Of a DNA stretch of 64,000 bases, positions 44,829 to 46,622 are shown piece by piece. The position numbers and the translations under genes were made by a program. The stretch's first letter is position 1. Every line of letters begins with the position of its first letter. The notes beneath the pieces were generated by a model. That model made no database searches. It was not told where the DNA came from and saw only the letters and a program-made list of their open reading frames with translations. The DNA comes from Alphaproteobacteria bacterium. GTDB lineage: Bacteria > Pseudomonadota > Alphaproteobacteria > Rs-D84. The DNA lies in assembly GCA_017463185.1 (NCBI GenBank), contig JAFTPS010000013.1:3826-67825 (forward strand), written 5' to 3'.

Positions 44829-46622
44829 ATGAAAAAGTTTATAATGTTTTGTATCGGTATATTTACCGTATTATCTGCGTATTCAGCACAGATAGTGAAT
44901 GTGGAATATATCCATAACGCGATTCAGAATAAATGGGATATAAGCCTGCCTTATAATAGTGAACTAAGTGAACCGCGCGTTGCGGCAAATATGAAATATT
45001 TACTGACCGCAGTTGATGTAGCGAACCAGGTAGTAAATGGAGCCGCGATTACGGACTATGGCAATGGAGAATATGCGACAATGGTTGCTGCTGATACGAT
45101 TGCGACGAACGCGGCTGTGGACGAGTTGATAACACAAAGTGGTTTAACATTTCGTACCACGTCGGACGCAACCAGTTTTTCTATTACTATATCGGCCACA
45201 GGGAACTTTACAATTGGATGGGGTGATGGTGTTGTAGAGACAATAGAAAGGACCGATACCACCGCCACCACATATTCACATACATACGATACTGCCAAAA
45301 CCCGTTATGTGAAACTGAGTGGTATGGCCACGGGGTATAATGTTAATGGTTTTGTTGCAAGTGTAAAAATTGGTACACCAACAAATATTGCGGGATTGTC
45401 AGGTTCATTGGGTGGGGTATTCCCAACATTGGATAGTGGTGAACAACCCAGTTTTTATGGTACATTTGGGGGGACAACAAATCTGACCAGCAGTATTCCC
45501 GCAGATTTATTTGATGGGGTCAAGGGGGCACCCCGCGAATATATGTTTGCAACATTATTTGATAACAGTGCAATTACTGGCTCAATTCCGTCAAATTTGT
45601 TTTCAGGGATTCAGGGCGCACCCGCCAAAGGTATGTTTGAATCAACTTTTCGTAATGCGTCGGGGTTGACCGGCTCAATCCCAGAGGATTTATTTGCGGG
45701 AATTTCCGGCAAGGCTCAGGATTATATATTTAATATGACATTTCGTGGTTGCAGTGGTTTAATTGGTTCTATTCCAGAAAATCTGTTCGCCGGGATTACT
45801 GGCGCACCAGGGGTTGCGTTTTTCTTTGCGACATTTCGTAATTGCAGTGGTTTAACTGGTTCTATTCCAGAAAATTTATTTGCCGGTATTGATGGTGCAC
45901 CACAGGAATCATGTTTTGCGGAAACTTTTGCATATTGTAGCAAGTTGACCGGAAAGATTCCCGAAAATCTGTTTGCCGGGGTCAAGGGTGCGCCCGCCGT
46001 TCAGATGTTCCACAGTACTTTTGCTGGTAATCGTAGAATGAGTGCGCCTATACCTGAAAACTTATTCGCCGGTATTGATGGTGCGCCTGCCGGCAGTATG
46101 TTTGCACAAACATTTGCGCAATCGGGAATATGTGGGGCGTTGCCCGAAAAACTGTTCGCGGGGGTAAGGGGGACGCCAGCACCAGCTATGTTCTATCAGA
46201 CATTTGTTGATTGTGGTGTATCGTCCATTCCAGCGGGACTGTTTGCCGGAATTCAAGGTGCACCCGCCAGCCAGATGTTTTATCGTACATTCCATTGGAA
46301 TTATGACTTTAATACAATTCCGGCGGGGCTGTTTGCGGGGATTGAGGGTGCACCCGCCAGTCAAATGTTCCAGGGTACATTTGATACCTGTCCAAATGTG
46401 ACATCAATTGGTGCGCCATTATTTGGAAATATATCGGGGGCTGCGGCATCAAATATGTTCTATGGAACGTTCAGTGGGGACAGTGGCCTGACCGGGGCGT
46501 CGGCCCAGTTGGCGGACGGGTCGTATTTGTACGAGAACTGGGAATTTACATCCGACCAGAATACATATAACGGCGCAACAAAATTGGATGACTATGAGAG
46601 TATGCCTGCGTATTGGAAATAA
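44829..46622 (+). CDS. Secreted tandem-repeat protein with about 13 copies of a 28-29-aa repeat (IPENLFAGIxGAPxxxMFxxTFxxCSGLTGS). Resembles DUF285/BspA-type repeats.
   Basis: Signal peptide MKKFIMFCIGIFTVLSAYSA. Highly regular 28-residue periodicity visible directly in the translation. Confidence 0.6.
   Translation: MKKFIMFCIGIFTVLSAYSAQIVNVEYIHNAIQNKWDISLPYNSELSEPRVAANMKYLLTAVDVANQVVNGAAITDYGNGEYATMVAADTIATNAAVDELITQSGLTFRTTSDATSFSITISATGNFTIGWGDGVVETIERTDTTATTYSHTYDTAKTRYVKLSGMATGYNVNGFVASVKIGTPTNIAGLSGSLGGVFPTLDSGEQPSFYGTFGGTTNLTSSIPADLFDGVKGAPREYMFATLFDNSAITGSIPSNLFSGIQGAPAKGMFESTFRNASGLTGSIPEDLFAGISGKAQDYIFNMTFRGCSGLIGSIPENLFAGITGAPGVAFFFATFRNCSGLTGSIPENLFAGIDGAPQESCFAETFAYCSKLTGKIPENLFAGVKGAPAVQMFHSTFAGNRRMSAPIPENLFAGIDGAPAGSMFAQTFAQSGICGALPEKLFAGVRGTPAPAMFYQTFVDCGVSSIPAGLFAGIQGAPASQMFYRTFHWNYDFNTIPAGLFAGIEGAPASQMFQGTFDTCPNVTSIGAPLFGNISGAAASNMFYGTFSGDSGLTGASAQLADGSYLYENWEFTSDQNTYNGATKLDDYESMPAYWK

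Follow-up and report, generated by a model that had tools for sequence, protein, structure and literature searches.

What is the repetitive protein encoded at positions 44829..46622 on the plus strand of this 64,000-nucleotide stretch of Rs-D84 alphaproteobacterial DNA (hereafter the window), and what might it do for its bacterium? An earlier interpretation made from the letters alone, here called the sequence-only reading, had described it as a secreted protein with about 13 tandem 28-residue repeats. The open reading frame (ORF) list confirms a 597-aa ORF at these coordinates, stop codon included, and the exact protein is encoded by 16 public contigs from ruminant gut metagenomes. We place the probability at roughly two in three that it is exported by Sec, binds a ligand without acting as an enzyme, and belongs to the leucine-rich repeat (LRR) superfamily, in its BspA/TpLRR-PARCEL (DUF285) branch, with a divergent unit of 29-31 residues; most likely it is a ligand-binding surface protein. 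The repeat gene comes last in a conserved cassette, after a leader RNA and a gene for a 67-aa secreted protein.

The repeat array occupies residues 193-557 (45405..46499, plus strand). Ten clean units of 29-31 residues, each anchored by an IPxxLF motif, begin at residues 223, 253, 284, 315, 346, 377, 408, 438, 467 and 497. A hidden Markov model (HMM) built from these ten detected a degenerate unit at residues 527-557, and with a further degenerate unit at residues 192-222 the count comes to 11-12. The regularity of the repeat and its motif (IPENLFAGIxGAPxxxMFxxTFxxCSGLTGS in this protein) had thus been read correctly, whereas the number and length of the units had not. The array fills about 60% of the span 44829-46622; it is preceded by a signal peptide, a further N-terminal module and a PKD-like domain, and followed by a C-terminal cap. 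BLOSUM62 autocorrelation over residues 191-560 peaks at a lag of 31 (0.65) and again at 62 (0.50), compared with a maximum of -0.41 in 200 shuffles. Across the family, the spacing between units (1,522 cases) is 31 residues in 43%, 29 in 27% and 30 in 22%, with 28 residues in fewer than 1% and 26 in 0.3%. Paralogues and homologues in other species contain 8-24 units.

The family consensus, taken from 1,510 units in 121 family proteins, is IP(E/A)(N/G)LF(A/G)GIxGAPAxxMFxxTFx(G)C(S)(G)LTG. Entropy is below 1 bit at thirteen scaffold positions (I1, P2, L5, F6, G11, M17, F18, T21, F22, C25, L28, T29 and G30). In the 597-aa protein itself, the conserved Cys is present in only about half of the units. 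Positions 15, 16, 19, 20 and 23, which flank the MF..TF motif, have entropies of 3.3-3.6 bits and are 57% Ser, Gly, Tyr or Asn. A fixed scaffold with five hypervariable positions is the pattern of a variable binding face.

None of the curated repeat models recognizes the 597-aa protein at threshold. The cutoffs are 30 bits for TIGR02167 ("PARCEL repeat-containing surface protein"), 25 bits for DUF285 (PF03382) and 27.7 bits for LRR_5 (PF13306). In Pfam the protein had no DUF285 or LRR_5 match at E<=1; in NCBIfam the whole protein had no match at E<=10, and the repeat region alone scored 8.6 bits (E 1.5) on TIGR02167. Two relatives pass TIGR02167, P0075 at 62.1 bits and P0117, which is 53% identical to the 597-aa protein, at 57.1 bits; P0053, P0080 and P0035 fall below its cutoff at 24.6, 21.8 and 20.2 bits. 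Matches to LRR_5 inside the array, also below cutoff, occur in P0075 (26.4 bits) and P0053 (20.4 bits), and DUF285 was found at E<=1 in none of 32 family members. A phmmer search of the PDB with P0117 gave no match. Pfam "LemA" hits on several relatives were rejected as spurious, being partial matches of about 27 residues within the repeats, none of them significant singly, and matches to HTH_upst_double_PIN, DUF5853, G6B and EccB were dismissed as noise.

The connection to known families is made by gp35 of the Klebsiella phage ST16-OXA48phi5.4, which passes LRR_5 (41 bits), DUF285 (32.3 bits) and TIGR02167 (53 bits). This protein aligns with the 597-aa protein over the whole array and cap (BLASTP 1e-17; tblastn 2e-8 in a 2.3-Gb database) and with the family profile over 360 columns including the cap (hhalign 99.9%, E 9e-34). 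By sequence, the gp35 domain also reaches solved LRRs, among them TpLRR 6mlx (E 1e-4). Because gp35 passes the curated models and aligns to the family, the homology to the BspA/TpLRR-PARCEL superfamily, transitive through gp35, is firm. Within this known kind of microbial surface protein, the present family forms a divergent branch that has had no name until now. The earlier comparison with the DUF285/BspA-like style, but with a distinct consensus, was therefore apt: there is no direct match at threshold to a well-characterized LRR subtype (DUF285, LRR_5 or TIGR02167), yet the protein is homologous to bona fide members, and its modeled fold matches viral proteins annotated as LRR or BspA.

An AlphaFold2 (AF2) model computed on the alignment of relatives has a mean pLDDT of 92.7 and a pTM of 0.82, with the repeats at pLDDT 95-98. 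Residues 200-560 are free of helices, and each unit has one short beta-bridge or two, which is what a solenoid would show; the repeats are predicted to stack as one continuous solenoid. In a Foldseek search of BFVD the model matched viral proteins annotated as LRR, LRR_5, BspA family or bacterial surface protein 26-residue repeat, with E values of 1e-16 to 1e-6 and TM scores up to 0.56. There was no significant Foldseek match to solved LRRs, so the local geometry probably differs from that of LRR_5-type structures.

The PARCEL proteins (Pfam DUF285 PF03382; TIGR02167 "Liste_lipo_26"; for example LppQ/LppC of Mycoplasma mycoides; Roske et al. 2010, PMC2996958) resemble the present family in being exported or surface proteins with tandem variable repeats on a fixed hydrophobic scaffold. 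Both occur as multi-copy families in host-associated microbes with small genomes, and also in phages. The canonical PARCEL unit has 25 residues, WDTSNVTDMSxMFxGAxxFNQDIS (PMC2996958), and the MFxx(T)FxxCxxL half of the unit described here corresponds to positions 1-12 of TIGR02167. The unit here is longer, 29-31 residues as opposed to 25-26, with IPxxLFxGIxGAPA replacing the W-D-x-S-N-V ... F-N-Q-D-I-S half. The present proteins further differ in having a Sec signal peptide and not a lipoprotein signal, and in their fixed flanks (N-terminal module, PKD-like domain and cap) and dedicated partner gene. The dyad symmetry of the repeat DNA, counted as inverted k-mer pairs, unlike the MEME-based method of the PARCEL paper, was higher than in codon-order shuffles, of which 7-15 in 300 equalled the observed count, but not higher than in permutations of synonymous codons that leave the protein unchanged, of which 80-128 in 300 did so.

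With the BspA-like/TpLRR proteins (LRR_5 PF13306; Tannerella forsythia BspA, Treponema pallidum TpLRR 6mlx, and the Trichomonas and Entamoeba families) the array has in common the motif logic ...F..C..L..I.IP..L..I...aF. These too form large paralogous families in mucosal microbes, as here, but the LRR_5 unit has about 23 residues as opposed to 29-31. Adhesion and host interaction are established roles of BspA-type proteins (for Trichomonas, PMC2843621). Close to our protein, too, are phrog_9915 and the C-terminal domain of phage gp35 ("tail protein I", a P2 gpI fusion). The gp35 domain aligns with the entire array and cap, ending in ...GLDDYDDLPGNW as against ...KLDDYESMPAYW, and it forms the distal end of its baseplate protein, where receptor-binding domains typically lie. 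The gp35 units have about 26-27 residues without the GxIP/GAPA insertions, and they are fused to Tail_P2_I and Big_2 without a signal peptide, a small partner gene or a leader RNA. With the plant-specific LRR (24 residues, LxxLxLxxNxL(s/t)GxIPxxLxx, as in the FLS2 ectodomain), only LTGxIP is common to the unit, which here has 31 residues; the family profile matched FLS2 with an E of 4e-5 in a gapped alignment that was out of register.

A single architecture is common to 31 relatives of similar length: a signal peptide, an N-terminal module of about 85 residues, a beta-domain with the motif WGDG...YSHTY, the array and the cap. The secretion proposed in the sequence-only reading is consistent with the signal-peptide-like N-terminal segment, MKKFIMFCIGIFTVLSAYSA followed by Q, which has a basic n-region and a hydrophobic h-region. 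This putative Sec-type signal peptide would comprise residues 1-20 (44829..44888, plus strand, the 60 nt before 44889), with cleavage between ...AYSA and QIVNVEY; the equivalent position in the 31 relatives lies between AHSA and EMVNVEY. In the AF2 model the region is a helix at residues 2-16 followed by a low-confidence stretch. The conserved N-terminal module (residues 21-104; 44889..45140, plus strand) consists of three units of a beta-bridge and a helix (VNVEYIHNAI..., ANMKYLLTAVD... and EYATMVAADT...). DSSP assignment of the model placed helices at residues 25-36, 55-70 and 90-100, with a bridge before each, and in the alignment of relatives N24, Y27, H29, N54, Y57, D63, N66, Y77, A83 and T84 are invariant or nearly so. 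The module had no match in Pfam, PHROG or the PDB.

The PKD-like "WGDG" beta-sandwich domain (residues 105-192; 45141..45404, plus strand) has six to seven strands with pLDDT above 90 and contains the WGDG...YSHTY motif. Pfam PKD or PKD_4 gave no match in the 597-aa protein itself, weak matches in 14 of 32 relatives, and a match above cutoff in P0002 (25.0 as against 23.5 bits); the PDB PKD domains 4xed and 1wgo matched the region weakly. The C-terminal cap (residues 558-597, ...SAQLADGSYLYENWEF...TYNGATKLDDYESMPAYWK; 46500..46619, plus strand) is kept in all relatives, in which its terminus reads ...GLSDYxQIPxxWK. Residues L554, S558, G564, L567, Y568, L586, D588, P593, W596 and K597 are conserved in all of them.

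A word-indexed search found 1,223 relatives, of which the few that are named are hypothetical proteins from metagenome-assembled genomes (MAGs) of Alphaproteobacteria. When 1.84 billion representatives were searched exhaustively, 6,601 proteins matched at E<=1e-3, of which 1,618 also reached E<=1e-30. The roughly 6,600 representatives are unnamed or called "hypothetical" because the 29-31-residue unit scores under the DUF285, LRR_5 and TIGR02167 thresholds. In reference genomes 338 relatives were confirmed, and the best 80 of these all belong to "Candidatus Enterousia" or other uncultured Alphaproteobacteria from the guts of ruminants, chickens and humans. At least 13 dispersed loci were counted in a single MAG and 3-5 in several others, so that the family is expanded in these genome-reduced gut bacteria; within the 64-kb window there is no paralogue of the repeat gene.

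The block of WGDG beta-domain, 31-residue array and cap behaves as a portable module, with two tandem copies in relatives of about 900 residues (P0001, P0002, P0009 and P0018). Giant relatives of 4,000-7,600 residues have up to 16 modules of beta-domain and array, and in the giants P0148-P0262, from Clostridia and Alphaproteobacteria, the module is combined with PKD, Flg_new, Big_2, ephrin-receptor-like Cys-rich domains and canonical DUF285 arrays; such fusions speak in favour of a surface protein. An ephrin-receptor-like Cys-rich module is fused to the array in P0019 and P0150. Two of the giants have been named by NCBI, one a "BspA family leucine-rich repeat surface protein" from Clostridia (DUF285 204.9 bits) and the other an "InlB B-repeat-containing protein" from Alphaproteobacteria.

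The gene directly upstream (44604..44807, plus strand) encodes the 67-aa secreted partner, a signal peptide followed by ...TSYVDTAVSSKVD...QEMAGSYTVSGTLVVPTPPLPTAE. Its stop codon lies 21 nt before the ATG of the repeat gene, with an AGGAG at 44814-44818. The small secreted Ser/Thr-rich protein reported there earlier is thus present, with 32% Ser/Thr, and is moreover a conserved partner: among the 74 family genes with enough upstream sequence, 42 (57%) have a partner homologue within 200 nt upstream, typically at 1-25 nt. The 27 homologues that were found are all hypothetical proteins from alphaproteobacterial MAGs. They have a signal peptide, the motif (I/L)ASxxYVxxxVxxKVD and a near-invariant C-terminus, QTMAGxYTVSGTLxVPTPPLPxxE, and longer versions carry inserted YPSALAVKNAL..KVD units. 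The partner belongs to no Pfam or PHROG family, its similarity to PHROG tail-fibre proteins being insignificant (E 0.003). The HMM of the partner family matches residues 1-40 of the repeat proteins, which comprise the signal peptide and the first VxVEYIH motif, weakly but consistently. Both the association with the partner gene and the leader RNA are new, neither having been described previously.

The whole conserved leader, from promoter to second terminator (44330-44597), comprises about 235 nt. It begins with a predicted sigma-70-like promoter (44330..44358, plus strand; TTGAAA-17-TATAAT, extended by TG and agreeing with the consensus at 11 of 12 positions), and the -35 and -10 positions are kept in five aligned leader copies. 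Domain 1 (44365..44460, plus strand) has the blocks GATGGGGTGT..AACCC..GCGTC..GGCGCGCC...GGCGTGTTTTTT conserved in the same five copies and ends in a terminator-like hairpin with a U-run (44430-44460). Domain 2 (44476..44597, plus strand) contains the hairpin P1 (44481-44501), helices P2 and P3, a box A2 (44553-44562) and, overlapping it, an intrinsic terminator (44559-44587) that sits just before the ribosome-binding site of the partner gene. The P1 palindrome is CTCCTGACC-N3-GGTCAGGAG, and the box CCTCCTGACC, 52 nt further on, overlaps the 5' arm of the terminator.

A covariance model, R1, built from four copies of domain 2 scores 131.8 bits at 44476-44597 and has strong matches (E<1e-10) directly upstream of related cassettes at no fewer than 12 other loci. 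In an alignment of 24 copies, which was fitted to the model and hence favours the consensus structure of P1, P2, P3 and terminator, 95.6% of the cells are paired, as against 72% in shuffles and 37-55% with slid partners, and 25 of the 26 consensus pairs show compensatory change. The alternative helix A':A2, which the 3' strand of P1 forms with the box further on, is outside the model, so that its pairing is an independent test; 86.8% of its cells are paired, with compensatory change at 6 of 10 pairs. Sequence-distinct versions of the leader coexist in this genome, each internally complementary, which argues for pairing in RNA and against a single DNA-binding protein. The palindrome that the sequence-only reading took for an operator is therefore real, but it is better explained as the P1 hairpin of a terminator/antiterminator leader RNA. 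We rejected a DNA operator since the P1 arms and the downstream box co-vary, even between distinct copies of one genome, as do the stems of P2, P3 and the terminator. A possible internal promoter, TTGCGA-17-CACAAT, was likewise rejected, its "CACAAT" being one arm of the co-varying P3 helix.

Rfam found nothing on the leader, either at the gathering cutoffs or at E<=1, and gave only terminator-like noise at 44200-44300. The leader resembles known terminator/antiterminator leaders, such as riboswitches and protein-dependent attenuators, in that A' can pair either with the upstream A or with the downstream A2, which overlaps the 5' arm of the terminator, both pairings being indicated by covariation. 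It differs from them in belonging to no Rfam family, in having two tandem terminator-like hairpins and in occurring as several sequence-distinct copies per genome of about 1 Mb. We consider it a candidate for a new cis-regulatory RNA of Rs-D84 Alphaproteobacteria.

Taken together, these features would fit the following scheme. The variable positions would line one face of the solenoid and form a ligand-binding surface, and the repeat protein could act as an adhesin or receptor for host, mucus or partner-cell surfaces in a bacterium of about 1 Mb that lacks respiration. Diversity would be supplied by the many diverged paralogues with their 8-24 units. The partner and the repeat protein would be translated together from a single mRNA and may assemble by way of their mature N-termini, which resemble each other. 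Their expression may be gated by the terminator/antiterminator leader, which is common to other envelope genes.

Several observations count against this interpretation. We found no outer-membrane anchor, lipobox (by reading of the sequence), beta-barrel or known secretion-system signal in the repeat protein, and since a Sec signal peptide delivers a protein only to the periplasm in a diderm, surface exposure is something that we infer. The localisation, ligand and function of all members of the subfamily are likewise putative. The 597-aa protein stays below threshold for every curated family model. In the Foldseek search of the PDB the best match had an E of 0.5 and only small beta-sandwich fragments were retrieved, with no solenoid-like solved structure; the fold thus rests on prediction, and the solenoid is unrepresented among solved structures. 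The AF2 model of the partner as a monomer is poor (pLDDT 65, pTM 0.23), and the N-terminal likeness between partner and repeat protein, to which the signal peptide contributes, is weak (E 1e-4 to 1e-3 among 121 sequences).

Other explanations of the protein have to be weighed against these points. The protein could have a structural role in the envelope or periplasm, for example as an S-layer-like coat or as a fibre subunit together with the 67-aa protein, and not that of a specific adhesin. The lack of any anchor or outer-membrane targeting signal, the conserved partner with its invariant C-terminal YTVSG...VPTPPLP, the poor monomer model, which suggests obligate assembly, and the leader that precedes a VirB2-like pilin candidate and other envelope genes are all compatible with such a scaffold. 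A pure coat, however, would not need many paralogues with hypervariable Tyr/Ser-rich positions, and in the homologous phage proteins the module is terminal, in a receptor-binding-type place, so that we think a scaffold improbable. The phage homologues themselves raise the question of whether the gene could come from a phage, as a receptor-binding protein of a tail fibre or baseplate, or be what remains of a prophage. Among annotated homologues the closest are P2-like gpI fusions of Klebsiella phages, gp353 of Bacillus phage G and phrog_9915 (E 7e-30), the best structural matches are viral, and there are N-terminal xxYVDxxV-type motifs that may be reminiscent of fibre proteins. Yet tail proteins lack Sec signal peptides, and each of the two cassette proteins carries one; at least 13 paralogues are dispersed in one MAG, and the partner has the insignificant tail-fibre similarity given above. 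The neighbours, moreover, are chromosomal (lepA, fusA/tuf and a ribosomal-protein region; CBAH, the choloylglycine-hydrolase-family protein, and OmpA-like, MFS and helicase genes), with no phage genes among them. A phage origin is accordingly quite unlikely.

The sequence-only reading had supposed that such a protein may be phase- or size-variable, and on this point our results give it no support. A contingency antigen would switch its repeat number or its expression within a strain by slippage or by recombination between units. The range of 8-24 units among relatives could be read in this way, the PARCEL proteins of mycoplasmas are variable surface lipoproteins (PMC2996958), and the cassette is flanked by identical palindromic hairpins. 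Tandem Repeats Finder, however, found no DNA tandem repeat in the gene, five 93-nt DNA units average 56% identity (range 51-67%), no exact direct repeat within the gene exceeds 19 nt, and there are no homopolymer tracts or simple sequence repeats in the promoter and 5' coding region. The 597-aa gene is present on all 14 contigs with the same CBAH allele and on all 16 with the exact protein, its length constant despite differing neighbours. Because unit number varies across paralogues and species while the allele is constant in the strain contigs found, the diversity is that of a repertoire of diverged genes and not of within-strain switching, and we see very little chance of a contingency antigen. 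An amphipathic alpha-helical repeat, in place of an LRR-like solenoid, was suggested for PARCEL domains by sequence-based predictions and helical-wheel projections (PMC2996958). It is scarcely credible here, given that the array in the AF2 model has periodic short beta-bridges and no helices, that its structural neighbours are annotated as LRR, and that each unit has conserved Pro and Gly. We thus retain the ligand-binding, LRR-related solenoid as the preferred interpretation.

The cassette lies in an ordinary stretch of chromosome with lepA, the leader of the ribosomal alpha-operon and tRNAs; the other 597-aa ORF in the window, at 3378-5171, is LepA and unrelated. A 28-nt palindromic terminator hairpin, AAAAATCGCCCGTTTGGGCGATTTTTTA, occurs only twice in the window, at 44205..44232 and, in an identical copy, at 46621..46648, so as to bracket the leader, partner and repeat genes. 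The downstream copy, lying where the repeat gene and the CBAH gene converge, serves as a bidirectional terminator. The bracketing may have been left by an insertion or duplication of the cassette at terminators, or by gene conversion. Similar bracketing was seen in 2 of 61 other loci, with different hairpins of 24 and 27 nt (L026, 3839/5870; L031, 3649/6087), and with this frequency flanking hairpins were rejected as a general signature of cassette mobility. Just 5' of the -35 of the cassette promoter, at 44283-44306, is a heptanucleotide repeat, AATAACA x 3.4, which is too short and imperfect for a phase-variation tract.

Upstream of the cassette, at 39794-43687 (plus strand), is a 1,297-aa ORF (1,242-1,264 aa according to gene callers) with weak N-terminal ankyrin-repeat matches and a long alternating C-terminal region that, from its sequence, could be a beta-barrel; it could be assigned to no family. 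Its length varies by strain, with 1,242 aa in L001 and 1,264 aa in L002. The convergent CBAH gene at 46646-47725 (minus strand) encodes a protein with a signal peptide, an N-terminal Cys nucleophile motif and a Pfam score of 218 bits; against the NCBIfam equivalog models of bile-salt hydrolase and penicillin V amidase it stays under the cutoffs. Strain contigs with an identical 597-aa gene differ nearby, L001 having ORFs of 632 and 214 aa where L002 and L003 have 495 + 107 and 270 aa. The locus L026 was considered as a strict ortholog and rejected: it has the CBAH, 137-aa and 1,297-aa neighbours, but other genes are interposed and its repeat gene is a paralogue of the 29-residue type. The 137-aa upstream protein had no contig on record in the contig look-up.

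Further copies of the leader are found in the window. A near-identical one of about 120 nt (122 bits) at 15112-14996 (minus strand) precedes the ORF 14340-14972 (minus strand), which encodes a 210-aa secreted Cys-rich protein (CETGYYG..CTICP..CNQGYY..CARCP) of the ephrin-receptor-like module kind. R1 also detected weaker copies of 28-41 bits, with different self-complementary A/A'/A2 boxes, at 9116-9253 (plus strand), 48725-48845 (plus strand) and 48473-48344 (minus strand). The first of these adjoins ORF 9266-9628 and the second ORF 48849-49118. One weaker leader stands before an ORF of 120 aa, a candidate VirB2/TrbC-type pilin in that it has a signal peptide and a pair of hydrophobic segments, and another precedes an 89-aa membrane protein. 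The occurrence of leader copies before putative envelope genes suggests an envelope regulon.

A wider proposal, which we regard as speculative, is that the cassette represents an undescribed modular surface-display system of the genome-reduced gut Alphaproteobacteria of the order Rs-D84. A multi-copy new RNA, riboswitch-like or a protein-dependent attenuator, would co-regulate an envelope regulon that comprises the PARCEL-like solenoids together with a VirB2-like pilin and secreted Cys-rich proteins. The invariant 67-aa protein would be dedicated to anchoring, to forming a stalk or to assembly, and onto it interchangeable binding proteins with 31-residue repeats would dock by their N-terminal module; cassettes would be exchanged or duplicated at terminator hairpins.

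Rs-D84 or "Candidatus Enterousia" bacteria have genomes of about 0.8-1 Mb without a tricarboxylic acid cycle or respiration, and the genome paper on them is silent about repeats, adhesins and surface proteins (PMC12306168). They are widespread in ruminant, poultry and human guts. At about 2 kb each, the 13 or more loci of a single MAG would take up, by a rough estimate, some 3% of a genome of this size, and on these grounds the family is a prime candidate to mediate contact with host or partner. A dedicated repeat model would close the annotation gap for some 6,600 representatives, and the small partner together with the covariation-supported leader gives concrete handles on assembly and regulation in this uncultured lineage.

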